A stretch of 63,581 nucleotides of DNA, the filler included. It is 5 parts of 5 records of this genome, joined end to end, with 100 filler letters (N's around TTAATTAATTAA, not from the genome) between each part and the next. Parts side by side here need not be neighbours in the genome. Positions count along the whole stretch, not along the records: positions 8,763 to 38,342 come from SRR20825010_33; 4 more parts are not named here. One strand, written 5' to 3'. The position numbers were made by a program, and so were the translations under genes. This document shows positions 3,123-23,873 of this stretch, piece by piece. Position 1 is the first letter of the stretch, and every line of letters begins with the position of its first letter. The notes beneath the pieces were generated by a model, which was not told the origin of the DNA, ran no database searches, and worked only from the letters and a program-made list of their open reading frames with translations.

Positions 3123-3137
3123 CCTAAATTATTAAAT

Positions 3138-4899: not shown

Positions 4900-4994
4900 A
4901 TGGGTTGTTAAATTAATGCTAATATTGGGTAAGTTTTTTCTTCATCTAGAATAAAATGTAAATTAGAACAGTACAACTAAATCAAATAAAAAAA

Positions 4995-6272: not shown

Positions 6273-6290
6273 TAAAATATAAACTTTTAG

Positions 6291-6336
6291 TAGCTTCCTA
6301 AGTTATAATACTCATAATTTAGGAAGCTATTTTTTT
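6291..6336 (+). terminator. Intrinsic terminator
   Basis: TAGCTTCCTAAGTTAT...ATAATTTAGGAAGCTA stem followed by T7. Confidence 0.8.
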
Positions 6337-6355
6337 AATATAATACCTGTTAAAA

Positions 6356-7360
6356 ATGCGTTTATCAATTATACTTCTCCTATTTATAAGTAGTGTTTTC
6401 CAACTATTCTCACAAGAGTATGAGCGAATATCTGACTTTAAAGAATACTATCCAATAGCGGAACGGCCTTATGTTATGGGTGGGTTAGGTAATAATCCCT
6501 ACGAAACAATGTTATTCGACGCTAAACCAGTTGTGTATTATAGTATTTATAATGATATCCGAAAAGCATTAAGCACCGATACAATTACCCCTGGATATGC
6601 TGTGTATGCCACATTTCAACCACAATTAAGAATGTATAACGAAACCTCTAAACCAATAAAAACTCCTTCTTATAAAATATTGTTTGGCTGGCAACCAATT
6701 ATAAAAACACAAGAGAATAATTTCTTGACATTAGCAATAGAAACTGGGCATTATTCTAACGGACAATCTAAAAGTGCTTTTAGTGAAGAGTTCGATGATG
6801 AATCGGAAGAAAGTAAAGAAATATATAACACAATTACTGATGAAACTAATTTGGCAGAAATACTTAATAGAAGAAGTGGGAATTTCTCTACTAATCTCAC
6901 ACGTTTATCTGTAAATTATAGGATTAATAGTATCGATAAAAACAACAGACCGCATAGAATTCACTCTTTTACATTAACTTATCAACTTTACCACGATAAG
7001 TTTTTAGGGGTTTTTAATTTTGGAGGCTATAATCCAGAAGATATCAACCTTTATGGAAGGCATCAATTGGAATTTAAATATGAATATTCTGGCTATATAA
7101 ATAAAATGAGATATGTTGTTGGACAAGATTTATACCTTCACTTTGGATCTCATCCTTCTACAGATCCATATCGAGTTCAATCTAGAGCCATCCTATTTCC
7201 CTGGGATACAGATTTAGGTTTTATAGCTCAATTCTCTGCAGGTTTCGACGATTATAATTATCGATTTGTAGATAGTTATGCAAGAGTTTCTGTAGGGGTT
7301 ACATGGGATTGGTTTACGCCTTTTATCATTAAGCCTACAAGACCAAAAACAGGCAAATAA
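6356..7360 (+). CDS. Outer-membrane beta-barrel protein, possibly a divergent phospholipase A (OMPLA-like)
   Basis: Signal peptide, GHYSNGQ resembling the OMPLA HxSNG motif, and amphipathic aromatic-rich strands. Confidence 0.5.
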   Translation: MRLSIILLLFISSVFQLFSQEYERISDFKEYYPIAERPYVMGGLGNNPYETMLFDAKPVVYYSIYNDIRKALSTDTITPGYAVYATFQPQLRMYNETSKPIKTPSYKILFGWQPIIKTQENNFLTLAIETGHYSNGQSKSAFSEEFDDESEESKEIYNTITDETNLAEILNRRSGNFSTNLTRLSVNYRINSIDKNNRPHRIHSFTLTYQLYHDKFLGVFNFGGYNPEDINLYGRHQLEFKYEYSGYINKMRYVVGQDLYLHFGSHPSTDPYRVQSRAILFPWDTDLGFIAQFSAGFDDYNYRFVDSYARVSVGVTWDWFTPFIIKPTRPKTGK

Positions 7361-7423
7361 TTTTGTCAAAATTAACTCCTTCTGGTAAGTCCTGAAGCAT
7401 GTAAATCTCGATTATTAGTAACT

Positions 7424-7453
7424 AAAAAAACGCCTTACTAATAAAGTAAGACG
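7424..7453 (-). terminator. Intrinsic terminator of the OmpA-family gene
   Basis: ACGCCTTAC...GTAAGACGT stem with an upstream A-run, which is a U-tract on the minus strand. Confidence 0.6.
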
Positions 7454-7490
7454 TCCTTTCAGCTTAAAGTGTGTGTTAATCTATTATTGT

Positions 7491-8324
7491 TTATTCATTT
7501 GAAGCCATTAAAGCAAAGAATTTGTTGATGTTTGGTAAAATCACAATTCTAGTTCTTCTATTTTTGGCTCTATTTTCTTTAGTTTCATTATCTACTAGCG
7601 GTTGGAAACTACTTCTTCCAGAAGCTATTAATTTTTCTGGACTTACTTCGTAATCGTTTTGAAGTTTTCTAACAACAGATGTAGCTCTTAAAACACTTAA
7701 ATCCCAGTTGTCTTGCACTTTCTCTGTATGAATACTTCTGGCATCTGTATGTCCTTCTACCATTACCTCAATACTTGGCTCAGAGTTTATAACGTCTGCA
7801 AGTTTTTGTAAAATATCGTTTGCCTTATTACTCACTCTGTAACTAGCTGTATTGAATAGTAATTTATCAGAAATAGAAATCATTACTACAGTCTCATCAA
7901 TATCAATAGCAATATCATCATCTTCATTCAAACTGCTGTTATTCATTGATTTTTGTAGATTGTAAGAGACAGCTAAATTCATTGAATCTTTTAAAGTCTT
8001 AGCCTCACTAAGTTGAGAAGGGTCTACATTTTGTAGTGTTTTACGCATTCCTCTTTTAGTTTCTTCAGAAATAACTGCTACATCGCCAACAGTAACCAAT
8101 TTACTATCGTTCTCTTCTGTTAAACTATTAATTTTACTATTGTACTCATCAACACGATTTTGAATAGCAGAGAATTTTGTTTCCAATTCTTCTTTTTCAA
8201 CTTGTGTTTTTTGTAGCTGACTTTGAAGTTCTCCTTTTTCATTCTCTAATTCCACATATTTCTTCTTCGATACACAAGAAGTTAATATTGCAATTGTAAA
8301 TAATGTTATTGCTGTTTTTTTCAT
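7491..8324 (-). CDS. OmpA/MotB-family lipoprotein
   Basis: Lipobox LTSC, coiled coil, VEGHTD, NWDLSVLRA and NRAKNRRT. Confidence 0.92.
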   Translation of the reverse strand: MKKTAITLFTIAILTSCVSKKKYVELENEKGELQSQLQKTQVEKEELETKFSAIQNRVDEYNSKINSLTEENDSKLVTVGDVAVISEETKRGMRKTLQNVDPSQLSEAKTLKDSMNLAVSYNLQKSMNNSSLNEDDDIAIDIDETVVMISISDKLLFNTASYRVSNKANDILQKLADVINSEPSIEVMVEGHTDARSIHTEKVQDNWDLSVLRATSVVRKLQNDYEVSPEKLIASGRSSFQPLVDNETKENRAKNRRTRIVILPNINKFFALMASNE

Positions 8325-8634
8325 CTGTTAATAGTTTTAATTATTTTTAAAAGTCTTAGTTAAAACACCCAAGTAACTACATCTTGAAATTTACTTTTTG
8401 AAGGATGTTTCAGCATCAATTTTTTAATTCATTCTGTAATATCTACGGAGATCTTTCTAAAATAGATTATTTAAAAATGTTAAAATGAAACGTTTTATCG
8501 TTTAAAACATTCATTTTATCGAAGAATATAAATGATGAAGTCGTGGTTTTCAAGAGGTTAAACTTCAGTATTTATCTTACAAAAAAACAGCAAATAAATT
8601 TCAATATTATAGTACCTTTGATTTTTTATCTGAA

Positions 8635-8662
8635 AATCAACTACCTCGAGGCAAGCCTACGA
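8635..8662. repeat. REP-like palindromic repeat, copy 2, truncated by the contig end
   Basis: AATCAACTACCTCGAGGCAAGCCTACGA, an inverted copy of 33-60. Confidence 0.8.
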
Positions 8663-8762
8663 NNNNNNNNNNNNNNNNNNNNNNNNNNNNNNNNNNNNNN
8701 NNNNNNTTAATTAATTAANNNNNNNNNNNNNNNNNNNNNNNNNNNNNNNNNNNNNNNNNNNN
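8663..8762. other. Artificial contig linker
   Basis: N-run + TTAATTAATTAA + N-run, 100 nt. Confidence 0.99.
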
Positions 8763-9770
8763 CCCATCACACGCATTGGACACAATCGCTATGTGAACCA
8801 CAGCGAACATGGTGGAATCATGGACCACAAGGGCAATTATATTGCAAAATATCCTTATGCGAAATTCCAAGAATGTTATGCGACGAACGATTTCATCTAT
8901 TCAGTCAGAGTAGGGAATGTCACGACGTTTGGCATTATGGCGAATGATCTCACCGTTAAAACTGAACCCATCTATTTTAGAGTGAATCCGCTTTCGTATG
9001 GTTATGCAGTCATGACAGCAGGTAGCAATCAGTTCGCGATTGTAAATATGTCGGGGAAGCAGATCACAGGATTTGACTTTGATCCAACACGAACTTTATA
9101 CAATCCCGAGGGGACCTATAATCTTTTAAAAATTACAGATGACGGTCCGAAGCACGGTGTAGTTGACACGTTGGGCAATACGATTATTCCATTTGAATAC
9201 GACATGATTCACCGCTACAAGTATGATTTAGCCATCGTTGAAAAGAATAAAAAAATGGGCATCGTAGATCGCACAGGGAAAGTCCAAGGTGAAATCGAAT
9301 ATGTTCAAATTAGCTTGCTTGACACGAACAAAATTCAAGTTCAAATCGCTGATCGAATTGGATTCATTGATCGAAATGGAGTAGTGGTTGAGCCTCTAAA
9401 ACACAAGGGTTTTGAGTCTTTGGATCCTAAATTCATCCACTTTACCGGTGCTAATGAATCGCGGTGGATTGTGAACACCATTACGAATGACACGATGGCC
9501 ATACTTCGTAGTGAAAGCTATGGAAAACAAGGATTTGCCCGTGTTATCCAAGGTGGAAAAAGAGGAATGATTGACAGAACAGGGAACTTTGTTTTGCCCT
9601 GCGAATATGATCAAATCTATCAGTTTAGAAATGGCGTTCTGCTCGTTCAAAAAAATTGGCTTTATGGATTATTGGACGAAGAGCTAAACATAGTTGAGCC
9701 GCTGGTTCACCGATTTTATAAGACAGGTAGTAATGGGAAGTATGCATTTTCTGAGACGCCAGAACAGTGA
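8763..9770 (+). CDS. WG-repeat protein, probably 5' truncated
   Basis: Repeated K.G.ID..G..I.P.EYD units. Confidence 0.85.
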   Translation, partial: PITRIGHNRYVNHSEHGGIMDHKGNYIAKYPYAKFQECYATNDFIYSVRVGNVTTFGIMANDLTVKTEPIYFRVNPLSYGYAVMTAGSNQFAIVNMSGKQITGFDFDPTRTLYNPEGTYNLLKITDDGPKHGVVDTLGNTIIPFEYDMIHRYKYDLAIVEKNKKMGIVDRTGKVQGEIEYVQISLLDTNKIQVQIADRIGFIDRNGVVVEPLKHKGFESLDPKFIHFTGANESRWIVNTITNDTMAILRSESYGKQGFARVIQGGKRGMIDRTGNFVLPCEYDQIYQFRNGVLLVQKNWLYGLLDEELNIVEPLVHRFYKTGSNGKYAFSETPEQ

Positions 9771-9779
9771 TTTACATCG

Positions 9780-9817
9780 ATTGCACTAAAATTGGGTTGC
9801 GATATGTTAAATAGCTT
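9780..9817 (+). other. Degenerate dif-like site (left island boundary)
   Basis: TTGCACTAAAA matches the left arm of the 17357 site at 9/11. A 10-nt spacer and ATATGTTAAAT follow. TATGTTAAATAGCTT (9803-9817) is an exact direct repeat of 17375-17389. Confidence 0.6.
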
Positions 9818-10041
9818 AGAAGATCAGTTCCAATCAAAGATTGAACGGATCGTTTTTTTCCTTTCTCTTTAAAGTTTATACCCATAAACAACCTCAAACG
9901 GATTCCTTTTTTCTTACAGCGCGGCGGAGAGAAATAGGGAAGGAGTGGTGTGAAGAACTTTAGTAATCGCAACAAATACCTGAAGAATACGGTATATATA
10001 CTCATGATTTTATGGTTTTCGGATGTATATATTTGATTCGG

Positions 10042-10245
10042 ATGACTTTGCAGAGAAAGTTTGGTCAAAACGTTTCGTTGAGGCGTAAACAAATTGGCAT
10101 CTCCCAAGAGAAGCTTGCTTTGACGGCAAATATTGATCGGACTTATATCTCAAAAATTGAGAAAGGTTCAGCAAACATTACGATAGGTATAATTGAAAAA
10201 TTATCTTTGGCACTTTCTACAGAAGCTGCCGATCTATTCAAATGA
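10042..10245 (+). CDS. XRE HTH regulator resembling restriction-modification controller (C) proteins
   Basis: GISQEKLA...NIDRTYISKIEKG. A Bacteroidota -7 box (TATATTTG, 10028-10035) lies 6 nt before ATG 10042, which suggests a leaderless mRNA. Confidence 0.85.
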   Translation: MTLQRKFGQNVSLRRKQIGISQEKLALTANIDRTYISKIEKGSANITIGIIEKLSLALSTEAADLFK

Positions 10246-10254
10246 TGATAATCG

Positions 10255-10291
10255 GACAAAATGTACTTTTGTCACGGACTATCGTCTACAT
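10255..10291. promoter_or_regulatory. C-box-like operator plus adjacent inverted repeat
   Basis: Minus strand 10273-10291 reads ATGTAGACGATAGTCCGTG. GACAAAA-N5-TTTTGTC lies at 10255-10273. Confidence 0.55.
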
Positions 10292-10447
10292 TCTGACATT
10301 TTTGCGTTGTAAAAGCATGACATTCAGTCAGCTATCGCGCTAATGCCAAATTGTTGATAACTCACAAAATCCCTGTGAATAGTGGGGTATAAGGTGAGAT
10401 AAATCTGTGTGCTTGATTTTGTTAATTCCCAATGGCACAGCTATTGC

Positions 10448-10537
10448 CAAAAAGAACAGCCACCCAAACAGGCGGCTGTCATAAAGCTAACTATTATCAA
10501 TAGCCACGTTTTGACCCTAGGCATCGATAATAAAAAC
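10448..10537 (-). ncRNA. Candidate ~90-nt antisense sRNA in the CBASS leader
   Basis: Minus-strand -7 box TAAATTTG (10543-10550) and minus-strand terminator ACAGCCGCC-TGTTTG-GGTGGCTGT-TCTTTTT (10449-10479). Confidence 0.4.
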
Positions 10538-10670
10538 TGCTACAAATTTATGCGAATTTTCCTATTCTCATAATTCCGTCGCGTTCACCTTATGCTATCG
10601 CTCTGTTTCTGTGGCTCTATCCGTTAGGCGGGTAGGTAGTTTTATTTATTAATTAATTAATTCAGAAACG

Positions 10671-10799
10671 ATGAGAAAAATATTACCTCATTTTTTGTAC
10701 GTGAATGATGCTGACACGTTAAAAACTGCATCCCAGCATGGTATCAGCAATGGTGCAGGATACACAATTATTAACCTGCAATTAAAAAAGGAGAACTAG
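10671..10799 (+). CDS. 42-aa small ORF immediately upstream of the CD-NTase (not in the ORF track)
   Basis: MRKILPHFLYVNDADTLKTASQHGISNGAGYTIINLQLKKEN*. AT-rich Bacteroidota-type start context; the stop lies 1 nt before the CD-NTase ATG. Confidence 0.55.
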   Translation: MRKILPHFLYVNDADTLKTASQHGISNGAGYTIINLQLKKEN

Positions 10800-10800
10800 G

Positions 10801-11820
10801 ATGGCAACAGACAGGAATGAACACTTAGAGAAAGTTCTGGCTACTCATGATATTTCGAAAGTTGAAAATCTGAGTAAGTTCGTGGAAAAGAAGAACGGCG
10901 TAAAAAGCGCGTTGGCAACAAAGTTTTCTAAAGAGAAGGCTTCAAATCCAATTGACTCCGGCTCATACGCAAAGAAAACTGCAAATAACAACAAGTTTGA
11001 TATAGACAGTTGTATTCCTTTCAAAAAGAAAACCAAAGAAGAAGAGGACGGGTTCGGTACCTTGAGTGAAATGTTCGAAGCTGTATATGATTATCTGAAA
11101 AATGAGTATGCGGATACGGATAGCGACCTGAAGAAAGAAGATGTAAGAAAGCAAAAAGTGTCAATTGGACTGAAATTCACTATCGACGGCGAAGATTTTG
11201 ATATGGATGTCGTTCCAGGTCGAGAACGCCCAAACCATGGTGATTACAATGATAATAATACAGACCTGAGTCTTTATATCAATCCAAGTAAACGCTCAAA
11301 AAAGGAGGAGGATGAAAATAAGACGAGTATCAAAACAAACATTAAGACACATGTTGATTTGCTGTCAGGTGCAGGGCGTAAACATGAACGCAAAGTAGCC
11401 AGACTTTTAAAGGTTTGGAAAACTGAAAGAAAGGAACAGAATGGTGGTAAGTTGATCAAATCCTTCATGATGGAACTTTATACCAAGGAAGCATTTGACA
11501 ATAACTCAGATGACATTCCCAATGGGATATGGAATAAGGTCAAAATGGTCATGAATCATATTGTCGAAAATATTGAGACGAATAATCTTGTTGATCCAGC
11601 AAATTCGTCAAATGTTGTGTCTGATTCAATGAGTGATACTGCAAAAACAGATACGAAGCGAGAAATGAAGAAGACAATTAAGGAAATTGATGAGGATTCT
11701 GATAAAATTAAAGAATACTTTCCTGTCAATGATGATTACGACAACGACGACGACGACGGGAGCGGTAATGGGGGAACAGGGCTTGGGGCATCTCAGTTAA
11801 GCACTAATAGTTTCGGTTGA
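10801..11820 (+). CDS. CBASS CD-NTase (cGAS/DncV-like nucleotidyltransferase) 1
   Basis: SGSYAKKTA...FDID, RKQKVSIGL, DMDVVPG, RLLKVWK and LVDPANSSN motifs; flexible tail ending NSFG. Confidence 0.92.
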   Translation: MATDRNEHLEKVLATHDISKVENLSKFVEKKNGVKSALATKFSKEKASNPIDSGSYAKKTANNNKFDIDSCIPFKKKTKEEEDGFGTLSEMFEAVYDYLKNEYADTDSDLKKEDVRKQKVSIGLKFTIDGEDFDMDVVPGRERPNHGDYNDNNTDLSLYINPSKRSKKEEDENKTSIKTNIKTHVDLLSGAGRKHERKVARLLKVWKTERKEQNGGKLIKSFMMELYTKEAFDNNSDDIPNGIWNKVKMVMNHIVENIETNNLVDPANSSNVVSDSMSDTAKTDTKREMKKTIKEIDEDSDKIKEYFPVNDDYDNDDDDGSGNGGTGLGASQLSTNSFG

Positions 11821-11821
11821 A

Positions 11822-13975
11822 ATGAGTGAGTTATTAGAAACAGTAAAGTCTTTATGCAGCAATGACAGTTCAATAAAAGTTATTGTAGACTTTGTTGTTC
11901 AAGATTATTGGGTAGTTGGAAAAATAAGTATTGATTGTTTAGGTACAACGGTGCCTTTTAATGTAGAGATACCAACCAACTATCCATTAACTAATCCTAA
12001 TACGGATAACATTTCTATACGTTTCTACAATGAAGACCTAATCGGATTTAATCATATTAATCCGGACGGCTCTGTCTGCTTTCACCCTGAAAAGGATGAT
12101 AATATTGAGCGAAAATTTTTGTCGGAAATAGAAGGAGTTAAAAACTGGATAAACAAATATCTAATTCAAGGTATAGAGGACGAACGTTATACATACATAA
12201 TACATGACATTGACTATAGTAAAAGGCACAAGTTCTTTTTTACAAATGTTGATCTCAAATTTAAACCTGGAATGTATGGACATTTTGTCTATTCCATCCG
12301 TGATGAGACAACTTTTAGTAGAAAAGATCGTGGTGTTGACGTAGAAGTAAAAAGTATGTATCGAATTGGAATTGAATATTCTACTGACTATTGGTCTGCT
12401 CAATTTTCAGGAGATTTATTTGATGACAATCATTTTATCGGCGCATGGTATTTCTTAGATGAGGAACCTGTTGTAAAAGGTGATTCAAACAGAAGAAAAG
12501 GAATAACATCTTGGGATCAATTTAAAGGACTCCTTAGTGATGAGTTTATTAAGTATCTATATGATGGGTTGAGACGGGATTTTGGTAAAAATTATCTAAA
12601 CGATGGTTTCATTTATATTTCCTTTGGTTATAAAATACCCAACAACGAAGGGTATGAAGTGCATTGGGATTTATTAAAAGTACCTGCGGATCAGAATCCA
12701 ATTCAAACGGAGTTGATACCATTAGAGCAACGAACTTCAATGAATAAATACAGAGGTGTATTGACAGATCAAAAAACGCTATGGGTAGAAACTGAAAATG
12801 CCGACTATTCTCGGTTCTTTGGGCGTGGAAAATTAAGTAAGTCCATTACGGAAAGTCATATTCTTATCGTTGGTTGTGGTGCTTTAGGAAGTATGCTGGC
12901 GGAAAACCTTGTAAGAGGTGGTGCAAGGTCTTTGATACTTGAGGATTTTGATAAAGTGGAAATCGGAAATTTATGTAGAGCAAATTTTGATCTTGACAGA
13001 GTAAGTTTTCAAAAAGTAGAAGCTCTTAAGCGAAGGTTGAGTTCCATATCGCCATTTGTTTCCATAAATCAAGTAGATGTTAAGATGAACATTTTTGATC
13101 CTGAGAAATTGAAGGGGCTTCTAGATGAGAATATCGATATAATCTTTGATTGTTCAACGGACTCCGAATTGTTACACATTTTAGATGGCATTAATTATCA
13201 AGGAAAAGTTTTTAGTCTTGGAATTACTAATAAGGCCAAAGCACTTGCTTGCGTCAGTGGTGACATGCTAACTGAGAAAAAACATCACTTGTTTAATCTT
13301 CTTGAAAACGAACCTGCTGATTTCTTTGAAGGAACGGGGTGTGGTTACCCAACATTTGAGGCTAGTTATAATGATGTTAGCACTTTGCTGAATATCGCAG
13401 TCAACAAAATCAACAGAATCCTACAAGCGCAAAATGAATACTCATCTTTTGTAACAACTATTAGGGATAGTGAATCGTGCCTACAGTTTGACACAGTAGA
13501 ATATCTTCGCTATAAATCCGATCAACGTGAGAGGCTCATATATGTTTCAAAACTTGCGCTATCCAGAATGGAAGAAGAGTTAGTAAAGTATTATCCAAAT
13601 GAGTTTGGTGGAGTTTTAGTTGGGGCACGGTATAAAGGAGTATTAATGATTTCTGACATACTAGTTCCTGATGAGTATGAGAATGGTCGTACAAAATTCG
13701 TGAGGCATCCGGGGTCACTTAATGATAGATTAGAAAAGCTTTTTAACGAATCGAACGGTAGGATTGAATATTTGGGAGAATGGCATTCCCATCCTGACCA
13801 AAATGCTGTTCCAAGCAATGAAGATTTACGTACTATGCACTTGATAGCGGAGGACAAAAAAATAAACACAAATTCTCCAATATTACTTATAGGGGAAACA
13901 AGAAAGGACTCAATGAGTCCAAGGATCTATATGATAGACAGTAAAAAATTGATTGAATATGAGCGGGAAAATTGA
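11822..13975 (+). CDS. E2-E1-JAB fusion (Cap2 + Cap3 in one chain)
   Basis: E2: HINPDGSVCFH. E1/ThiF: IVGCGALGS, DFDKVEIGNLCR, GTGCGYPTF. JAB: EFGGVLVG...GEWHSHP...PSNED. Confidence 0.92.
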   Translation: MSELLETVKSLCSNDSSIKVIVDFVVQDYWVVGKISIDCLGTTVPFNVEIPTNYPLTNPNTDNISIRFYNEDLIGFNHINPDGSVCFHPEKDDNIERKFLSEIEGVKNWINKYLIQGIEDERYTYIIHDIDYSKRHKFFFTNVDLKFKPGMYGHFVYSIRDETTFSRKDRGVDVEVKSMYRIGIEYSTDYWSAQFSGDLFDDNHFIGAWYFLDEEPVVKGDSNRRKGITSWDQFKGLLSDEFIKYLYDGLRRDFGKNYLNDGFIYISFGYKIPNNEGYEVHWDLLKVPADQNPIQTELIPLEQRTSMNKYRGVLTDQKTLWVETENADYSRFFGRGKLSKSITESHILIVGCGALGSMLAENLVRGGARSLILEDFDKVEIGNLCRANFDLDRVSFQKVEALKRRLSSISPFVSINQVDVKMNIFDPEKLKGLLDENIDIIFDCSTDSELLHILDGINYQGKVFSLGITNKAKALACVSGDMLTEKKHHLFNLLENEPADFFEGTGCGYPTFEASYNDVSTLLNIAVNKINRILQAQNEYSSFVTTIRDSESCLQFDTVEYLRYKSDQRERLIYVSKLALSRMEEELVKYYPNEFGGVLVGARYKGVLMISDILVPDEYENGRTKFVRHPGSLNDRLEKLFNESNGRIEYLGEWHSHPDQNAVPSNEDLRTMHLIAEDKKINTNSPILLIGETRKDSMSPRIYMIDSKKLIEYEREN

Positions 13976-14780
13976 AATAAAGGAGTTGTTTAAGGGATTG
14001 CAAGATCAAATGACTTCTCAGTTAAACACTAATAGGGATTTTATTAAGCATCCCGGAAGCAAAGGAGACTCACTGGAGAACACTTGGATAGAATGGCTTA
14101 GCAATTATCTCCCCAACCGTTACTGCGTTGACAAGGCTATAGTTGTAGATTCTAAAGGAAACCTAAGTGATCAACTTGATTTAGTTATCTATGACCAAAC
14201 GTTTACACCATTTGTTTTTAAACAAAATGGTATAATGTATATTCCGGCAGAGGGAGTCTATGCTGTTTTTGAAGTTAAGCCAGACCTTTCGAAGGAGTAT
14301 ATTGAATATGCTGGAAATAAAATTGAAAGTGTTAGAAAGTTGTACCGAACTTCAACCTCAATAATTGACGTAGGAGTTAAGAGAAATGCAAGGCCGTTAA
14401 CTCAAATTCTTGGTGGAATCTTGGCAAGTGAAAGTAAAATTAAAACTGAAAAGACCATTACTTCACACGTCCAATCTTTGAAAGGTTTTGAAGGAATTGA
14501 CATTGGGTGTGCTGTAGACTTTGGGACGTTCTATGTGGATTATAGGGAATCATATACACCTTCCGGGACATTAGTAGTTTCTGATATGAATAAAGAAATT
14601 TCGGAATACTATTCCACGAGGACAATTGATAAGGTTCATTTCAGTGATAAGGAAAATTCTCTGGTAGCATTTTTTTTACAACTGATGAGATACCTTCAGC
14701 AGAGCATTGGCACAGTAGCAGCAATTGATTTGAACGAATATTCAAAAGCAATTGGTTTTACAATTGACAAAGAGCTTTAA
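13959..14780 (+). CDS. nucC: NucC-family cyclic-oligonucleotide-activated endonuclease
   Basis: HPGSKGDSLE..W, YLPNRY, SDQLDLVIYD, IPAEGVYAVFEVK, KIESVRKLYRTS and GTVAAID closely follow E. coli NucC as recalled. The ATG at 13959 overlaps the upstream gene. Confidence 0.92.
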   Translation: MSGKIEIKELFKGLQDQMTSQLNTNRDFIKHPGSKGDSLENTWIEWLSNYLPNRYCVDKAIVVDSKGNLSDQLDLVIYDQTFTPFVFKQNGIMYIPAEGVYAVFEVKPDLSKEYIEYAGNKIESVRKLYRTSTSIIDVGVKRNARPLTQILGGILASESKIKTEKTITSHVQSLKGFEGIDIGCAVDFGTFYVDYRESYTPSGTLVVSDMNKEISEYYSTRTIDKVHFSDKENSLVAFFLQLMRYLQQSIGTVAAIDLNEYSKAIGFTIDKEL

Positions 14781-14792
14781 TATCCAACCCTT

Positions 14793-15857
14793 ATGAAGAA
14801 AACCGTTAAATATGCTGGTCGTGGAGCATTAATTGTAGGCATTGGTAATGCGTTGTTAAATGCTATTCAGCAATTAAATTCAATTGATGAAAACCCAGAA
14901 AAAGAATTTGATTGGGGGGAATTGGTATTGGCTGGAGGAAAAGGCGCGCTGACTGGTGCTGCCGGCGGGGCTGTTGTTGGTGGTATTTTGGATTACCAGA
15001 ACTCTAAGGAGGCTCCGCTGAATACCAGTGCCATAATTAATACAATCGTTTCAGATTTGACACTCGATAAGACGAGTTCGGAATATATCTTTTTATCTAG
15101 AAAGGCAGATAATCTCATTAAAATTATTGAACGGGAGTTTCAACGAGAGCTTGGTGGGCATCTTTTAAAAATTGGCTCGACGGAAGATGGAACAGCTCTG
15201 AACTACGATTTTGATATTGATATTAGTGTTCCATTCAGTCCGAATAGCTTTTCATCAGTTGAAGTAATGTATAATGACGTGTATGATTTTTTGAATCGTT
15301 CATACAGCGACGAACATTTGAATATAATTCGAAAGCAAGGAAAATCAATAGGTCTGATTTACACTTACCGTGGTGAAGTAATGAAGATTGACATTGTACC
15401 TTATAAGCAAAGTCGAAATGCAAATAATAAGACAACTGGATATTTGTATGTTAACAAGAATTCTTTGTTTGAGCCAAATGGCTACACCAAAACGGACATT
15501 AGGGCCTTAAAAGCTATCAGTCTCAGTAATAGCCAACAGAAAATTCTAATTGTACTTAAAAACTGGAAAGAAACTAGATCTGTGCCAATTGGCTCGCATC
15601 TTTTGAAGTTATTTATTCTTGATGCTTATGCTGTAAATCGAGGTAATATTCCAGGTCGTTTAACCGATAAGGTAATAATGGTTCTATCTCATATTGAAAG
15701 TGGGATTATGACAAGACGAATCGTAAGTGCTGAGAATACGAATAACGTTTTAACTGACCTTTCCAAAGATAGAAAGAGAGAAATTGTATTGGAATGCAAA
15801 CGGTTACTAGATGATTACGAGTATCAACCAAACTCGATTTTGAAGTATTTGGAATGA
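14793..15857 (+). CDS. Second CD-NTase-like nucleotidyltransferase with an N-terminal glycine-zipper/hydrophobic extension
   Basis: IGSTEDGTA...FDIDISVPF, RKQGKSIGL, KIDIVP, LKNWK and ENTNNV motifs; N-terminal GKGALTGAAGGAVVGG. Confidence 0.85.
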   Translation: MKKTVKYAGRGALIVGIGNALLNAIQQLNSIDENPEKEFDWGELVLAGGKGALTGAAGGAVVGGILDYQNSKEAPLNTSAIINTIVSDLTLDKTSSEYIFLSRKADNLIKIIEREFQRELGGHLLKIGSTEDGTALNYDFDIDISVPFSPNSFSSVEVMYNDVYDFLNRSYSDEHLNIIRKQGKSIGLIYTYRGEVMKIDIVPYKQSRNANNKTTGYLYVNKNSLFEPNGYTKTDIRALKAISLSNSQQKILIVLKNWKETRSVPIGSHLLKLFILDAYAVNRGNIPGRLTDKVIMVLSHIESGIMTRRIVSAENTNNVLTDLSKDRKREIVLECKRLLDDYEYQPNSILKYLE

Positions 15858-15929
15858 AGGGTAGAGGTCTCGCAGTTGATAATTTAAAAAAAATTTAATT
15901 GTAATTGTTCTGAAGCAGGAGAACATTGG

Positions 15930-16265
15930 TTGTCCATTTATTCAAATGATAATATTGAACAGAGAATCTTCATCCAAGAACTCAATCTCAACAAACGACG
16001 CTCCGTCAAAATTCAAGTCGGGGATTTAGGAGAACCAAGCAAAAATCTGTGGGTGTGCCTGGTACTAATCATGGAAGAAATGGAACCAACACTATACCTC
16101 ATTCCAAGTCTAGCACTCGCAGATATGGACGACTTCATTTTCAAGTACAACAAGTTGAACGCGCCTTTCGAGCATTTATCGAATTACGAGATCAAAGTGT
16201 TTAGAAATGGGATGGAAGAATTAGGCAAATACGCTTTTGAAAATATGATAGGGGAGTTGAGCTAA
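15930..16265 (+). CDS. Hypothetical protein, possibly an N-terminally truncated remnant
   Basis: 111-aa ORF with a TTG start; no family recognised. Confidence 0.45.
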   Translation: MSIYSNDNIEQRIFIQELNLNKRRSVKIQVGDLGEPSKNLWVCLVLIMEEMEPTLYLIPSLALADMDDFIFKYNKLNAPFEHLSNYEIKVFRNGMEELGKYAFENMIGELS

Positions 16266-16465
16266 TCTTTAGTAGAAACCAACAATTCCCGAATATCAAC
16301 ATCCAAAATTTCAGCAATACGCTTCAAATCCTTCAAATGTGGCTGAGACTTATTATTGCAAAACGAAGTAACAGCGGTAGTACTTTTACCCAATTCTTCA
16401 GCTAACCATTTCTGTGATTTATCTGTAATGACAAGTACTTCTTTGATTCTATTTATTCGTTCCAT
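16262..16465 (-). CDS. XRE/Cro-like HTH regulator
   Basis: NRIKEVL...SQKWLAEELGKS...NKSQP. A -7 box (TATATTTG, 16471-16478) lies 5 nt before the ATG. Confidence 0.9.
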   Translation of the reverse strand: MERINRIKEVLVITDKSQKWLAEELGKSTTAVTSFCNNKSQPHLKDLKRIAEILDVDIRELLVSTKD

Positions 16466-16511
16466 TGATTCAAATATAGCAACAATTAAACAAAATTTTT
16501 CGAATGAAACG

Positions 16512-16620
16512 TAAGTCTGGCTTATGTTTTAGATAGTTAGACTTGTTTTAAATTAAGTTTAAATTACAGTTTTCATTGCTTTTATGTAAGTTGTTCATAT
16601 CTTTACATAAGTTTAACTTA
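16512..16620. promoter_or_regulatory. Array of five TAAG-N5-CTTA operator-like palindromes
   Basis: Copies at 16512, 16533, 16554, 16587 and 16608, with 21-nt spacing within each cluster. Confidence 0.65.
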
Positions 16621-16634
16621 CACTATTAATAGAC

Positions 16635-17000
16635 ATGAAAAACAAAGACCTTATTATCAGCCTTATCCAACAAGACCTCAAACACAACCAACTTATTATC
16701 GGTTTAGACAATATCGGGCTGCAAGCAGGGGAGAAACACCATTTAGAACTCTTAAACGTAGTTTATGTCCTCATGAAAGTTCCAGAAACAGTAGAAATGG
16801 ATTGGGGAATGACGTACACCAACTACATGAACAAAGCATTGCGTTACAGGATTCAATCAACATCAGAAGGATTAAGACATCAGGCAGAATTGTGTTATAC
16901 ACACTTATCCTTCAGTTTAACGGTCGAACTGGTCGAGCTTCAGTCTTCAAAAGCTGCAGTTTTCTCTTTTTCTAGAAATGATGCATTTGATTGGGCATGA
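16635..17000 (+). CDS. Hypothetical protein divergent from the HTH gene
   Basis: 121-aa ORF with an ATG start in a Bacteroidota-like context. Confidence 0.6.
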   Translation: MKNKDLIISLIQQDLKHNQLIIGLDNIGLQAGEKHHLELLNVVYVLMKVPETVEMDWGMTYTNYMNKALRYRIQSTSEGLRHQAELCYTHLSFSLTVELVELQSSKAAVFSFSRNDAFDWA

Positions 17001-17356
17001 GTATTCTCTCTAAAAAATTACTTTTGAGAATTCCGTTAGGTTTCGTATGGACAATTGAATAAATACTAAAGTCTGTGAGAATTGCTTAAAAAATTCAAAG
17101 CTGTACAATTTATCGTGCGCGCTAATTTTACGGCGTAAGACCTAGATATTTTATGCATCTGATAGTTGAGCTAGAAATTGAAACCACGAGAATATTGAAC
17201 ACAACGAATCAGAACTAGTTCATAGAGTAGCCGAAAAAGACCTTCTTGAAAAAGAATAAGAAGTGTACCAGTTCCACGGTATAAATGATTTTCGTTTCAC
17301 AGCTTAAATGGACCGCGACACACGAGCCTCAGCCACCAGATTATACAAACACCCAA

Positions 17357-17384
17357 TTGCCCTATAATTAATATTATGTTAAAT
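17357..17384 (+). other. dif: dif site (XerC/XerD recombination site)
   Basis: TTGCCCTATAA-TTAATA-TTATGTTAAAT: 11-6-11 architecture, XerD arm identical to E. coli dif, intergenic. Confidence 0.85.
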
Positions 17385-17453
17385 AGCTTCTCACGCCAAA
17401 CTAACAACCTTTCCAAGTCATCCGTTTTGGTAATACCTTCCATCATCCTCCTC

Positions 17454-18266
17454 CTAATCACAATTCCCGCAAATTATCGCCAAATCATCATCGCAAATAA
17501 ACTTCACATACTTCCCTTCTAAATCTTCCCACCAGCCAAACGTGAAACTAAACGAATCCGTTCCTGAAATTTTCGACATCCATTTATTGTTGCCTTTTTT
17601 CATGTGCAGATCAAGCTTCTTAATTTTGTTCTGCCGTACCTTCGTAGAAAAATCAAATTCTAGGCCAGCGTCCAAGGCTTGTTGTTTTATATTCTCAATC
17701 TCCTGATTCGTAGTTTTCTCAGAAATTTCGAACATCTTCATTTTTAGCGAATCTTGAGCATTTTTATCTCTTTTAATCAAATATGGAGCTGCAAGGTTCT
17801 TATTAAACCACTTTCCGTCTCGTGGAATCATCGTTAAACTCAGTTTTTCTAGATTCGGTGTTTGAACCGCTGCGCGCAATTTTTCTTGAGTGACAATCCG
17901 TTCTGGTTGATCCTCTTCATAATAAACGTTGATTTCTGGTCGCGTTTCGTTTTCTACCGGATTAACCGCTTTATCCTCCAAGGTTTGAATCATTGGTAGT
18001 GACTGTGGTTCAGTTGTTTCGCTTGAGTTTGTAGTTGATAATGTCGATACGACCAATGCGCTCGTCACTGTAATAATACTGATAGCTGTAATCATAATAA
18101 GTGTTTTAAATTTGAGTGATAACGCAGCCCATTTTGTGAGAATTCCACCGCCCGCTGCGGCTATAATAGACACATTTAATGCCTCCGAAGCTTGTGAATA
18201 CGACGTTTTTGGCGCTTGTTCACGTGCGCGACTGAACAGTTGATCGATTCTTTCGTTAGTTTCCAT
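17454..18266 (-). CDS. Membrane-anchored putative anti-sigma factor
   Basis: Overlaps the ECF sigma gene; short N-terminal domain, TM segment and a Ser/Thr linker. Confidence 0.55.
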   Translation of the reverse strand: METNERIDQLFSRAREQAPKTSYSQASEALNVSIIAAAGGGILTKWAALSLKFKTLIMITAISIITVTSALVVSTLSTTNSSETTEPQSLPMIQTLEDKAVNPVENETRPEINVYYEEDQPERIVTQEKLRAAVQTPNLEKLSLTMIPRDGKWFNKNLAAPYLIKRDKNAQDSLKMKMFEISEKTTNQEIENIKQQALDAGLEFDFSTKVRQNKIKKLDLHMKKGNNKWMSKISGTDSFSFTFGWWEDLEGKYVKFICDDDLAIICGNCD

Positions 18267-18786
18267 TCATTGCCTCCTTCCCTGTTTTGTATGCTGACTC
18301 AAAGGTCAAAATGGTGGTTAATTGAATCCTTCCTCGCCTCAAGCGTTGCTTTACTGAGTCCTCTGAAACGGATTGAATTTCAGCTATTTCACGAATAGAA
18401 AATCCAGAGATTTCAAATAGAATCAGGCATTCTCGTTGATCTGGCTTAAGTTCTGCCAATGCCTTGTGAAGTAAATGTACTTCTGCATCAATTTCGGCTT
18501 GATTTGTTCCTGGAATCGAGAAAATTTCTTCTGAATCCGCAAATACGCTCGTTTTCTTCTTGCGGTGACTATTCGCCAATAAACGAACGCTGATTCCAAA
18601 CAAAAAGGAAAGAAAAGCCTCAGATGATTTTAATGAATCGAACTTGTTGTACGCCACAATCAACGTTTCATTCATCAGGTCGTTATACTCCATCTCTCCA
18701 TACACACGCGCCCTGCAGAAGCGTTCGAAACGATCGTGAACCGGTTCGTAAAGTGATAAAAAGCGATGTTGTTTTGAAACTGACAT
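18256..18786 (-). CDS. ECF RNA polymerase sigma factor
   Basis: Region 2 (DLMNET...FLSFLFGI) and region 4 (GFSIREIAE...SVKQRLRRGR). Confidence 0.92.
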   Translation of the reverse strand: MSVSKQHRFLSLYEPVHDRFERFCRARVYGEMEYNDLMNETLIVAYNKFDSLKSSEAFLSFLFGISVRLLANSHRKKKTSVFADSEEIFSIPGTNQAEIDAEVHLLHKALAELKPDQRECLILFEISGFSIREIAEIQSVSEDSVKQRLRRGRIQLTTILTFESAYKTGKEAMNGN

Positions 18787-19063
18787 GCGTAAATTGAACT
18801 GCGTTTAATTGTTAAGTGTCGTTTTTGGTGCAAAAGTGACAAGCATTCTAAAAATAAGTGAAATCTTTTTTCTTCACCGAACCCAAATTCTCTGCAAACT
18901 AAGTTAAATGTGCTATTCCCCGAAGATGCTAAATTCGAGAAGAACACCATAAATTAATTTTTTATTCATAGTTAAAGTCTCAATTGCTCAAATTAAATAG
19001 TTATTTTGGTGAGAACGATTTATGATTGTCATGAATCAAACCAATTAACCAAAACCACTATTA

Positions 19064-19822
19064 ATGAAATTACTACAAACTAAAATGTCCTCATGGACTA
19101 AAGAATCATCGGACTTTCGTTCATTGGCAAAGGCGATAAAATTTACAGGTCTTTTTTTCTTATTTGCGTTCTCAAGTGTCGGTCAAGACCTGTCTGTTTT
19201 TAAAAAATGTGCATTAGGAAGTGGAATTGATGCAATTCCATACCCCACTTTGGAAAAAAAAGCCAGTGATTTACAATCTGCTAAGGACAAAGCCTTTGAT
19301 GCGTGCAAGGGTTACAAAGGACGTGCATTGCATGATAGTAAAAAGAATTCTTTGAGAATTAAAAAAGAAATGACTGAAGACCTTGTGGAAGCGGAAAAGA
19401 AAGTGGCAGATTACAAGGGTTCTTCATCTTCTGAGCTGAATAGCCTAAATTCGAAAGTGAAGGAACTTAAGAAAGAATTAGCAGATGTGACCGAGGAAAT
19501 CGCGGAATTCGATAAAAAGATCAATGAAGGATTAAAACTTTGGCAAAAACTTTTGGATATCCGATTTGAAATAGATCAAGTATACTCCGAAGTAAAAAAA
19601 CAACTATTGCAATCAAAATCTTCTCCTGACGACCACATTAAGAAGCCTTCGAGTTCGGATAAAGTAGCAATGGATCAATATAACAAAGATGTCACGGAAT
19701 TAAAGGGGTATATTGACAAAATTGTCGGCACTGTAGACAAAGGAAGATCCGAACATAAGAAACCAATAGATGAAGCAGTAAACGTGATTGAGTGGTTGGA
19801 AAATGCTCAAGATTTAAAGTAA
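19064..19822 (+). CDS. Secreted coiled-coil hypothetical protein
   Basis: Hydrophobic signal-like segment and Lys/Glu heptads. Confidence 0.65.
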   Translation: MKLLQTKMSSWTKESSDFRSLAKAIKFTGLFFLFAFSSVGQDLSVFKKCALGSGIDAIPYPTLEKKASDLQSAKDKAFDACKGYKGRALHDSKKNSLRIKKEMTEDLVEAEKKVADYKGSSSSELNSLNSKVKELKKELADVTEEIAEFDKKINEGLKLWQKLLDIRFEIDQVYSEVKKQLLQSKSSPDDHIKKPSSSDKVAMDQYNKDVTELKGYIDKIVGTVDKGRSEHKKPIDEAVNVIEWLENAQDLK

Positions 19823-19990
19823 AAGTAAGTTGAGAAATTCAGAGCATCATCAGCTAAATTGGGTGACGCTTCAACCCTGTGCTATAATTCACATTCAGGA
19901 TTGATTATGTATCCATCGATTAAAATTGGGTTCAGCAAAATTTAAGAGCTATTAATTTCCGTTATTTGCAGAGATTAAAACCTATAATTT

Positions 19991-20842
19991 ATGATTATGA
20001 AAAAAAGTGTCTTAGTTATTCTTGCGTTTGGATTTTCACAACTGATATTCGCTCAAAATCAGAGCTTTATTGAAGTAGCGGTTGATGAAGCCATAGAATT
20101 GAAAGCGAAAAGCGTTGCCTTCCACATAGCTGTAGTTTCTGAATATGAACAACGTGAGATTATGTTGTACAATGATTACGAAAGTGAGTACTATTATTTC
20201 GAAAGTGACGAAGATTACTACTATGAAGAAATGATGGCAGAATCGCCAAAGAAAGTGACTAAGGAAATGAAACAGGCCTACGAGCAACGTCAGCGTGAAC
20301 GTGATGAACGACTCGCAGAACAAAGTCTCAAGGAAGCTCAGTTTGTGCCTTTTCGAATTTCTGATTTAATGAAAATATTAAACGATAATTCGATAGCGTA
20401 TACTGTAAAAACAGATCGTGGTGTTTTCGACGAGTTGTTGTATTCGGAGAGCTACGAAAATGACAGTAGCTTAGTAGTTAACCTGACTTCAAAAGAAGGG
20501 TATGATAATTTAATCTCACTCATTTCTGATTTACAAGTGAACTCCAATACGGGGGCTGTTGTCTATGAGGAATTAAATGATCAGTATGAAACGGCCATTC
20601 CTAAAATCACAGCGAAAGCAACAAAACAAGCGAATTTATTGGCGAGTTCAATGCAACGCAAGGCTGGAAAAGTGATTCAGTGTACAAATGTACTACCAAC
20701 AGGAATGAGCACGAGCTTGATTAATGAAATGATTACTAATCCTTTAGGTAGATTTGGATTAAGTGATAGTTTCGATTCGAATCCATTTAACAAGATCCAA
20801 AAGAATTACATTACGTTCGTTTATCGTTTTGAGCTTATTTAA
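19991..20842 (+). CDS. SIMPL/DUF541-like secreted protein
   Basis: Signal peptide, FIEVAVDE...LKAK start, KATKQANLLA...GKVI and a terminal YRFEL strand. Confidence 0.55.
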   Translation: MIMKKSVLVILAFGFSQLIFAQNQSFIEVAVDEAIELKAKSVAFHIAVVSEYEQREIMLYNDYESEYYYFESDEDYYYEEMMAESPKKVTKEMKQAYEQRQRERDERLAEQSLKEAQFVPFRISDLMKILNDNSIAYTVKTDRGVFDELLYSESYENDSSLVVNLTSKEGYDNLISLISDLQVNSNTGAVVYEELNDQYETAIPKITAKATKQANLLASSMQRKAGKVIQCTNVLPTGMSTSLINEMITNPLGRFGLSDSFDSNPFNKIQKNYITFVYRFELI

Positions 20843-20850
20843 GACTAAAA

Positions 20851-22326
20851 TCACCCATTTACCAAAGCGAGGGTAGTTTCGTATACGTTACTGCCCTCCA
20901 TTTTTGACTTCAACCACGCATAATAACTCATTCGCAGCAAATCTTCCTCTTCTTTGGGTTTCCAAATAAATGTTTTTTCCACCTTTTGTTTAAATTCGTC
21001 CGTGGTCGCTATACTTGGCGTTGATTCAATCTCTCTTACCAATTTCAAAAAAGGCAAAATCTGAACGTTCTCAGGAAGTTTTAATTCCGCTCGAAACTTT
21101 CGGGTCAAACTGGAAATCCGCGATTCAACAAAATCTACATCTGCCAATTCTATGTGCAGTAAAATTTCAAAGTATTTCAGGTTTAAAAGCCATTCCATTC
21201 CAGCTTCACGGGTGTAGAAAGTGTCAGATCCATTCAAGGTTGCGAGAATACTTTTTGCTTGAGAAAGCTCTCCCTGCTGAAAATGAATCATCGCTCGCGT
21301 GAGTCGCGCATTGAGTAACAGATCCAATTCTGCGTACTTTCCATTGATCAATTCATCAATAATTCGCGCCGCCTCTTCGTGTTTTCCCAGTAGATTGAGA
21401 TTCAGTGCTTCAAGCGTCGCGTATTTAACATAACGAAGATCAAAAAGCATTTCGTCAAAGCGTTTCATTTGAACCAACATATCACTCAAATATTCCCGAC
21501 TTTGGTTGAATTTCTTCTTCCGAAAGTAAATATTTGCAATGCTATACAAAAGATCGATGTGGTAAATTAACGAGCGCTCATTATCTCCCTCCTCCCCTTT
21601 CAAATCAGTTATTCTATCTGCGAAAAACACATTCAAGGAATGATAATCATTTCGCTTTGTTCCAGCTATATCGGCAATACTCGCAAGTTGACAAAGCGAT
21701 TTAAAACTATATCCCAATTGCCGACTCACGCCATATTTCTCATAGTTTTCGGTAAGAATTTCTTCTAAATCAATGGATTGCTCCTTTCGTGACGCATCTT
21801 TGAAAGCCTTCTTAACAATTGCATATACAGTGTTGAGTCTTTCTTGCTCCAGAAACGATTGTGTGTTTTTCTCCAATTTGTCAAAAATCACTGCTTGATC
21901 TTCTGCTAATTCATGGTCAGAATACTCAATTTGAGTGTGATAAATCTCGTTGAGAATGGAGAAATGATCCAGAGCCAAAGCGGATTGTTCGGTTTTTTTG
22001 AGAATTTTGAATCCACTTCTAAACTTTCCAAAACGAATGAGTTTTCGAGCAACAAGCAAGTGCTTAATCACGGAAATTTCTTGTGTTGCTTCCGCATCCA
22101 GAGTTCTCGTCGAAATAAAATCGAGGAGTCTATCTGAAAGACGCTTTTTTAACACATTGTAGGCATTGTCTCCAATTTCATTTGAAATCACCTCTTCTTC
22201 GCCGGCAATTATTGCTTTGAAAAGATCGATATTTCGGGTGTCGTGCCGCTTATTCCTGCTCTTTAAATAATCGATAAAGTGATTTTGCTCTGAATTATCC
22301 AGTAAGGCAATAAGATCTTTGGTCAT
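20851..22326 (-). CDS. Helical (TPR-like) hypothetical protein
   Basis: 491-aa sequence with a helical-repeat pattern. Confidence 0.65.
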   Translation of the reverse strand: MTKDLIALLDNSEQNHFIDYLKSRNKRHDTRNIDLFKAIIAGEEEVISNEIGDNAYNVLKKRLSDRLLDFISTRTLDAEATQEISVIKHLLVARKLIRFGKFRSGFKILKKTEQSALALDHFSILNEIYHTQIEYSDHELAEDQAVIFDKLEKNTQSFLEQERLNTVYAIVKKAFKDASRKEQSIDLEEILTENYEKYGVSRQLGYSFKSLCQLASIADIAGTKRNDYHSLNVFFADRITDLKGEEGDNERSLIYHIDLLYSIANIYFRKKKFNQSREYLSDMLVQMKRFDEMLFDLRYVKYATLEALNLNLLGKHEEAARIIDELINGKYAELDLLLNARLTRAMIHFQQGELSQAKSILATLNGSDTFYTREAGMEWLLNLKYFEILLHIELADVDFVESRISSLTRKFRAELKLPENVQILPFLKLVREIESTPSIATTDEFKQKVEKTFIWKPKEEEDLLRMSYYAWLKSKMEGSNVYETTLALVNG

Positions 22327-22344
22327 GGATCGGGAGATGAAATT

Positions 22345-23856: not shown

Positions 23857-23873
23857 CAAAAAAATAGTTATTC

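Follow-up and report, generated by a model that had tools for sequence, protein, structure and literature searches.

The literature describes several integrative mobile elements that exploit Xer (IMEXs), namely CTXphi, VGJphi, TLCphi and the gonococcal island (PMC4246890, PMC9226527). Those that proceed by a XerC-first exchange are among the published examples (PMC4246890). Here we analyse a stretch of DNA of 63,581 nt, which we call the window, in which a block at 9818-17356 carrying an operon for a type II cyclic oligonucleotide-based antiphage signalling system (CBASS) is bounded on its left by a dif-like site and on its right by dif. Integrases, transposases or prophages are the usual explanation for defence islands, and here the sole recombination signal is the dimer-resolution site of the host. 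The reading that we favour, with a probability of roughly 0.55, is that the block is an IMEX-like element with no integrase that was inserted between convergent host genes at the dif of the chromosome. The two sites are as follows.

9781-9812, + strand: left dif-like site, with the XerC-type arm at 9781-9791 (TTGCACTAAAA), the central region at 9792-9801 (TTGGGTTGCG) and the XerD-type arm at 9802-9812 (ATATGTTAAAT)
17357-17384, + strand: dif, with XerC arm TTGCCCTATAA, central region TTAATA and XerD arm TTATGTTAAAT, followed by AGCTT

The CTXphi-type IMEX of Vibrio cholerae (also RS1) likewise has no integrase, is found at dif and has an over-long central region, of 12 bp compared with the 10 nt here, and CTXphi regenerates a working dif at one junction (PMC4246890). 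In attP1 of CTXphi the arms are kept on either side of the 12-bp central region, the double-stranded site is inert and insertion is irreversible (PMC4246890). CTXphi folds its single strand through a second, inverted site, whereas the island in the window has no such partner, and CTXphi is a phage with replication and morphogenesis genes, whereas the block has none. In the IMEXs of the VGJphi type and the TLCphi/gonococcal genetic island (GGI) type a single double-stranded site recombines with dif via the host XerC/XerD and the insertion is flanked by direct dif-like repeats, as is the block in the window. The attP of VGJphi is 29 bp long and TLCphi has a degenerate XerD arm together with its own activator, XafT (PMC4246890, PMC9226527); in contrast, the XerD arm here is good and the central region is 10 nt.

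Defence loci, CBASS included, have been reported inside dif-integrated Vibrio prophages, both inoviruses and double jelly-roll phages (PMC12715192, PMC11630473). In these prophages a helix-turn-helix (HTH) repressor of the rstR type is the terminal gene (PMC12715192, PMC11630473), and in the window an HTH gene is the first after the left site. The Vibrio prophages carry capsid, replication and xafT genes and belong to the Gammaproteobacteria, whereas the block has no phage gene and lies on a Bacteroidota contig. From the same phylum, the PhiCjT23-like Flavobacterium prophages and the Bacteroidales microvirus proviruses are 6-8 kb in size, have no integrase and are flanked by repeats of dif or of a dif-like site (PMC9719478, PMC3091885). 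What they carry is a virus genome, whereas the cargo in the window is a defence operon with regulators only. The pdif modules of Acinetobacter plasmids are likewise short, free of recombinase genes and bounded by XerC/XerD sites. Such modules reside on plasmids, have their sites in inverted order and mostly carry resistance genes; the sites in the window, in contrast, are direct repeats on a chromosome, at dif. In the literature searched, which did not extend to supplements (for example the dif tables of PMC3025954 or the prophage lists of PMC9719478), no account was found of phage-gene-free, integrase-less defence cassettes or arrays of them at dif in Bacteroidota. IMEXs with defence cargo, in the Vibrio phages, and dif-flanked Flavobacterium prophages are already known; what is new is the phage-gene-free defence cassette.

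The first-pass annotation of the window described the right site as a canonical 28-bp dif, and this is borne out. Allowing up to three mismatches, the 28-mer is found in 22 of 401 Bacteroidota species genomes, in exactly one copy in each and with no hit in the reversed control. The consensus of the family is TTGTCCTATAA TTWATA TTATGTTAAAT, with AG next in 12 of 20 loci. On the complete 3.53-Mb chromosome of genome G465 the family site is at 1,807,102, where the GC skew changes sign; in 20-kb samples, 9 of 10 to one side have a positive skew and 9 of 10 to the other side a zero or negative one. Because the 28-mer family is single-copy and is positioned at the skew switch of G465, the right site is assigned by its sequence family to dif. 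A XerD-like gene and a second Xer-like gene were present in all five genomes checked, and dif has been predicted in all 19 Bacteroidetes genomes studied in PMC3025954. Within the window the cumulative GC skew has its maximum near 15-17 kb, driven by the island itself on a short contig.

The left site differs from dif in having a central region of 10 nt rather than 6 nt. It reads as the annotation had it, with an exact 15-mer (TATGTTAAATAGCTT) shared with dif, the 10-nt spacer and a start 10 nt after the stop codon of the flanking WG-repeat gene. The annotation had raised the possibility that the 15-mer is common across the genome; in the window, which is the scope of our count, there are just these two copies and no others even at two mismatches. 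The identity of the two sites continues through AGCTT, to 9817 on the left, and they are direct repeats, both on the + strand and 7.6 kb apart. A two-arm scan of the whole window returned these two sites only, with 2 hits in the reversed-sequence control. A local match to the 34-mer of dif at the level of the 15-mer, within the 29.6-kb contig, was reached by 8 of 200 shuffles and is not rare; the XerC-arm block adds a match of 12/14 at a nearby offset, and the pair would arise by chance at about 1e-6 according to a hand calculation. The 80 nt outside the sites and the 80 nt inside them are unalike, the observed scores being reached by 127/500 and 312/500 shuffles respectively, so the repeat is the site of 34-38 nt and no larger duplication. 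The description of the left site as degenerate does not hold, since each arm is about one mismatch from natural dif variants (for example, TTGCACTATAA is the XerC arm in locus L019) and the central region alone is aberrant. The combination of intact arms with an aberrant central region looks like a selected or element-borne design and not random decay.

Between the sites the block comprises HTHa, the type II CBASS operon, u1, HTHb and u2.

10012-10245, + strand: HTHa, a small XRE-type HTH protein and the first gene of the island (PADLOC control-protein models, E 6.5e-16; capH, 8e-7)
10801-11820, + strand: CBASS CD-NTase, an oligonucleotide cyclase (PADLOC PDLC00803, E 1.6e-68)
11822-13975, + strand: fused Cap2 (E1-E2) and Cap3 (JAB) (PADLOC PDLC00827, E 4.3e-208; JAB, 1.7e-34; Pfam ThiF and Prok-JAB)
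13953-14780, + strand: NucC-type endonuclease effector (PADLOC Effector (NucC), E 1.2e-94; Pfam DUF6602)
14793-15857, + strand: second CD-NTase-like protein (PADLOC cyclase PDLC00803, E 1.5e-34, residues 81-345)
15930-16265, + strand: u1, a small protein (no Pfam or PADLOC family)
16262-16465, - strand: HTHb, an XRE-type HTH protein (homologues of 77-91% identity in dif-linked cassette arrays)
16635-17000, + strand: u2, a small protein divergent from HTHb (tblastn matches in L138, 39%, and L143, 43%)

The annotation of the cargo as CBASS is supported by the PADLOC matches to the cyclase, E1-E2, JAB and NucC. With CD-NTase, Cap2, Cap3 and effector all present, the operon belongs by its gene content to type II CBASS. 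It has the CD-NTase, Cap2 (E1/E2), Cap3 (JAB) and NucC in common with type II CBASS that uses NucC, and differs in the fusion of Cap2 to Cap3 and in the second cyclase-like gene after NucC. Nor was any sign found of the integrase whose absence the annotation had noted: Pfam, NCBIfam and PADLOC scans of the island open reading frames (ORFs) and a tblastn search with a XerD-like protein against 9700-17500 gave no recombinase or integrase remnant. No Rfam family matched in the island or in the ends of L036, and no internal junction or second repeat pair was seen within the island.

The block thus bounded lies at a site of the dif-family 28-mer (the identity of dif being taken from the sequence family), lacks an integrase of its own and is flanked by direct dif-like repeats. 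What the sequences show is the anatomy of the block, the identity of dif, the absence of any recombinase gene, the sharpness of the repeat edges and the existence of relatives elsewhere. From these we infer dependence on Xer, an order of strand exchange and a circular intermediate. The circular form would bear a single dif-like site, made up of a good XerC arm, a long central region with GCG at its end and an XerD arm, and the host XerC/XerD would pair it with dif. XerC would carry out an exchange of one strand pair where the XerC arm borders on the central region, with insertion being completed by replication or by a second exchange. The left hybrid would then consist of the host XerC arm followed by the 10-nt central region and XerD arm of the element, and would not be recombinable, and at the right junction the XerC arm of the element would join the central region and XerD arm of the host to give a working dif. 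On such a hybrid-junction model the element would come to lie on the XerC-arm side of dif, locked in, with dimer resolution preserved. An exchange on the XerC side would account for the side of dif that all such blocks occupy, for the arms being intact, for the sharp limits of the repeat and for the island's stability. The long central region may instead have come from a later insertion of 4 nt, which would be selected since a pair of working dif sites separated by 7.6 kb would cause the island to be deleted.

Relatives of the island bear on its mobility. The seawater run X1 holds pieces of a relative of 90-95% identity (9899-11736 and 13958-15885). One X1 contig matches the window to exactly 9817 and then diverges, and another starts matching exactly at 17355 and differs before. 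The flanks, at 8763-9778 and 17399-24000, are essentially uncovered in X1 and about half of the island bins are covered, these data being contigs, which show presence and not absence. The peculiar left site is conserved in the X1 relative with different surroundings. A related CBASS is found on the metagenome contig L025, the sole locus from the metagenome scan with Cap2-Cap3, with identities of 67% for the CD-NTase, 58% for NucC and 45% for Cap2-3; the viral scan gave no match. It has a tyrosine recombinase gene alongside and no dif-like site within the 4.6 and 6.5 kb on its two sides, so the CBASS operon is cargo that is separable from its vehicle and can ride on different ones.

The neighbourhood of dif was surveyed in 49 loci (about ±10 kb around dif) from one large Bacteroidota family, probably the Flavobacteriaceae; two further loci failed the dif criterion. 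Extra dif-like sites numbered 23 on the XerC-arm side against 5 on the XerD side, with 20 in total in the reversed-sequence control over 890 kb. Direct-oriented long-spacer sites taken by themselves were not clearly enriched (6 rows at 5 places, against 3). A variable-spacer pattern run over the 401 genomes was discarded, being equally frequent in reversed controls, and the 6-nt class alone was usable. Two conserved elements were evident in the loci. The one that we call RE is a conserved non-coding sequence of ~570 nt with the dif core at its end and, within it, inverted dif-like sites whose central regions are 7 and 9 nt long; it adjoins the XerC arm of dif in 13 of the 49 loci and is full length in four. 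It matches no Rfam family, and could be an accessory sequence for Xer, an attachment region of a phage or satellite, or an origin. Copies of RE are at the following positions.

L036, 10186-10750: RE copy
L035, 9992-10508: RE copy
L077, 9489-10020: RE copy
L031, 9621-10081: RE copy

The other, LE, is a dif-like site whose XerD arm is a variant one and whose central region, of 7-10 nt, has GCG at its end (GCA in L077); it is followed mostly by TGCTT and then by ~200 conserved nt. Of the 49 loci, 5 contain it, in every case 5.2-8.2 kb away from dif, to its XerC-arm side and in its orientation, and none was found on the XerD side (432,512 vs 456,564 bases scanned). The cargo between LE and dif is as follows.

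L036: Avs4 and a u1 homologue
L037: a 1405-aa protein with an HNH-type nuclease head
L035: a type II methylase and an ATPase
L055: a complete type I restriction-modification (RM) system
L067: PDC-S60

Ordinary genes also occur as cargo, in L031, L077 and L030; those of L031 and L077 include two-component systems of the LytTR type. The LE/RE loci, searched to within 10 kb of each cassette array, gave no tyrosine recombinase. Junctions of RE with LE fold strongly as single-stranded DNA (ssDNA; z of -3.9 and -5.4, with 0 of 200 shuffles as stable), and the predicted folding is compatible with a hairpin substrate like that of CTX. DNA common to genomes is limited to the end regions and the HTHb/u1 module.

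The three small genes of the window link it to these cassettes. HTHb homologues of 77-91% identity are found in L136-L142, and six of these seven loci hold LE/RE arrays, laid out as dif-RE-HTHb-cargo-LE and then RE-HTHb-cargo-LE. Homologues of u1 with 38-43% identity are found by tblastn in L036, L137, L139, L140 and L141, beside HTHb homologues or dif, and u1 follows HTHb in four of the LE/RE arrays. In L138 the divergent HTHb/u2 pair stands ahead of an LE site, as it stands ahead of dif in the window. The cargo of the HTHb arrays includes Gabija GajA, CapP, DRT2, PDC-M62, a PglX/type IIG enzyme and IetS. The left site of the window resembles the LE sites in having a central region that ends in GCG and an nGCTT flank. 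The window shares with the LE/RE cassettes both the HTHb, u1 and u2 genes and the site design (a central region of more than 6 nt, a GCG/GCA end and nGCTT). A pairwise comparison of the window with the left end of L037 scored 52 against a shuffle maximum of 35, which is weak. An earlier profile match to the window was discounted because the window had been part of the profile. As the ends of the window island are unlike LE and RE, its kinship rests on the three small genes and the site design, and at best it would be a diverged relative that shares genes and design and not conserved ends. Of the delivery by Xer recombination proposed in the annotation, what stands is that the edges are sharp, that the X1 relative keeps both sites and that the small genes recur in dif-linked, integrase-less blocks; the unlikeness of the window ends to the conserved ends of those blocks speaks against it.

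The idea of a hotspot for defence genes, also suggested in the annotation, holds for dif in other genomes of the large Bacteroidota family, where Avs4, RM, DRT2, Gabija and other systems lie next to it. We tentatively propose, at somewhat less than even odds, that one large Bacteroidota family, probably the Flavobacteriaceae, has an undescribed class of phage-gene-free, integrase-less cassettes, which accumulate as arrays beside dif, on its XerC-arm side. Each would be closed by a dif-like site with a central region of 7-10 nt ending in GCG/GCA, and the arrays would serve as an integron-like repository, driven by Xer, for defence systems (CBASS, Avs4, RM types I and II, DRT2, Gabija and PDC candidates), the window island being a diverged member that has lost the conserved non-coding ends. 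If Xer does move such blocks, any bacterium with XerC/XerD would possess a universal, always-present docking site for immune genes, and the surroundings of dif would be a cheap mining ground for novel defence systems in the Bacteroidota, a phylum with poorly charted mobile elements. IMEX biology would also extend beyond the phages and pathogenicity islands of Proteobacteria, and a lengthened central region would provide a simple rule for locking insertions without harm to chromosome segregation. The wider pattern, with dif as a docking site for defence cassettes, merits a proper census.

A number of observations weigh against insertion by Xer or against the kinship with the arrays. Xer is not known to use a double-stranded site whose central region is 10 nt long, and the CTX-type alternative of a hairpin finds no support in the window, where no inverted partner site was detected in 16466-17356 or 9818-10300 even at relaxed thresholds. 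The AGCTT beyond the XerD arm is common to both sites, for which a local duplication is a simpler explanation than a hybrid junction. With the window left out of their construction, LE profiles of 7 or 21 copies miss its 9.7-10.1 kb region, the RE profile matches only the dif core of the window (E 5.5e-4), and the non-coding DNA near the dif of the window does not resemble that of L138. Proteins that resemble HTHb at 45-60% identity are common, occur in multiple copies and are therefore uninformative, being found in 88 of 351 genomes. Four runs gave no empty site, no circle and no joint that skips the island, a result of little weight as the runs were available as contigs only, and no close relative of the host was found. 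A conserved hydrolase levels off at 77-83% identity in 2 x 401 genomes, and therefore no close relative could be located; the WG-repeat protein found one locus, at 25% identity, in a scan of genome contigs, the anti-sigma-like protein had 0 matches in 35 genomes, and the flank genes of the window occur in none of 20 dif loci.

It is conceivable, though unlikely, that both sites were left by an older dif-integrated element and that CBASS arrived later by homologous or illegitimate recombination, with Xer never acting on this cargo. Such a replacement would fit the unrelated cargo, some of it ordinary, as in the LytTR systems of L031 and L077, that is found elsewhere between a long-central-region site and dif. 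It would also fit the confinement of the DNA shared between genomes to the end regions and the HTHb/u1 module, and the association of the related CBASS of L025 with an integrase. The X1 relative, on the other hand, keeps both sites while the flanks are uncovered, so that sites and cargo seem to travel together, and the island has no visible internal junction or second repeat pair. The shared AGCTT, 5 nt of identity past the XerD arm that a hybrid junction does not predict, is the main attraction of a local origin, in which dif was duplicated locally, an insertion of 4 nt and some substitutions put one copy out of action, and genes accumulated between the two without Xer delivery. Since 12 of 20 dif sites also have AG next to the arm, only CTT is left to explain, and the duplicated stretch is no wider than 34-38 nt; as such an origin would also leave unexplained both the small genes common to dif-linked cassettes and the X1 relative, we regard it as improbable.

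Insertion by Xer could also be mimicked by a recombinase acting in trans, if a helper tyrosine integrase or the machinery of a helper ssDNA phage, and not the host XerC/XerD, recognised dif-like sequences. The strong single-stranded folding of the ends of related cassettes would suit helper-dependent satellites, and L057 has an 8-kb prophage-like block with an ssDNA-phage replication protein at dif. The attachment sites, though, mimic both Xer arms in detail, no such recombinase lies within 10 kb of any cassette array, and the published dif-integrating Flavobacterium and Vibrio phages are ascribed to XerC/XerD (PMC9719478, PMC4246890), so this too appears improbable. Chance resemblance, with the left site having nothing to do with dif, is hardly credible. 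A match at the level of the 15-mer does occur in 8 of 200 shuffles when taken alone, and loose two-arm scans give many hits, as the 20 in the reversed control over 890 kb illustrate; but both arms match here, in the same order and orientation, and the site coincides exactly with one edge of a defence block that looks foreign and has dif at its other edge; it is also conserved in the X1 relative. We therefore retain insertion of an integrase-less element at dif as the preferred reading.

Further features of the island genes are as follows. HTHa matches the NCBIfam RstR-family model at 4.7e-6, below the cut-off of the model, and no CapP remnant was found in the 555-nt gap at 10246-10800 that follows it. 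The second cyclase has a glycine-rich N-terminal extension of ~80 residues with a membrane-associated look, and by eye its GS...DxD motif is seemingly kept. Neither u1 nor u2 matched a Pfam family; XafT of TLCphi presumably carries DUF3653. A winged-helix match of u2 in Atlas is a lead only, and a single-sequence structure model of u2 was dropped as too poor for use (pLDDT 52.7). HTHb may be a CapH-like regulator of cassette cargo and not a recombination factor. In L137, at 8711-10504, a gene for a CapP-type peptidase is directly ahead of the HTHb and u1 homologues.

Other elements were noted in the surveyed genomes. The block in L057 (2139-9822) lies between RE and dif and has twelve small ORFs on the same strand, one of them REP_ORF2-G2P, for ssDNA-phage replication; it is comparable to the PhiCjT23-like prophages and is probably a PhiCjT23-like or filamentous prophage. 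In L034 (10001-19987; genome G583, ~200 kb from dif) a prokaryotic Argonaute (pAgo), a type III RM system, an HTH protein and a DUF3987 primase-like protein lie beside a pair of inverted dif-like sites, and this region may be another kind of element that uses such sites. A 218-aa protein is encoded directly after LE in three cassettes (L137, 16493-17626; L067, 14998-15983; L140, 7824-8807) with identities of 42-62%, and in L137 its gene is apparently the sole gene between two LE copies; it is not present in the window. The copies scanned had no Pfam or PADLOC match, and motifs picked out by eye suggest that it is TraB/GumN-like.

The window is made up of five contigs (1-8662, 8763-38342, 38443-45348, 45449-53855 and 53956-63581), joined by four linkers of 100 nt, each of 44 N, TTAATTAATTAA and 44 N, at 8663-8762, 38343-38442, 45349-45448 and 53856-53955. 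Their GC contents spread from 0.31 to 0.56 (about 0.31-0.40, 0.51, 0.43 and 0.55), and given these strong differences the contigs may come from more than one organism or replicon. The island is on the second contig, B (8763-38342, 29,580 nt), with a left flank of just 1 kb. The DNA of this stretch is real: positions 8763-24000 lie within a single contig of 105,222 nt of the public run X3, and a run from a different study covers the stretch at an identity of at least 99%. The flanking host gene sets both converge on the island.

8793-9770, + strand: left flank, WG-repeat protein gene (Pfam WG_beta_rep, E 2.2e-22), its 5' end cut by the contig start at 8763; the stop codon is 10 nt ahead of the left site
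17454-18266, - strand: right flank, membrane protein and putative anti-sigma factor, a label given by position only as no family matched; it ends 70 nt past dif
18256-18786, - strand: right flank, extracytoplasmic function (ECF) sigma factor (Pfam Sigma70_r4_2 and Sigma70_r2; NCBIfam sigma70-ECF)

A contig of 7956 nt in runs X3 and X6, at ~4x the chromosomal depth, shares words of 18-21 nt with 9857-9877, 17009-17026 and 19888-19908, which are probably chance matches of low complexity; a joint 9877>19888 that was based on 21-nt words of this contig was set aside. A gene for a XerD-type tyrosine recombinase is found at 40317-41216 on the + strand (TIGR02225, 350.7 bits, above the cut-off), beside plsY, on a different contig with a GC content of about 0.51, which may or may not share the organism of the island. 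The ORF at 53966-54547, on the + strand, encodes only the C-terminal part of MutS domain V and is cut at the contig boundary.

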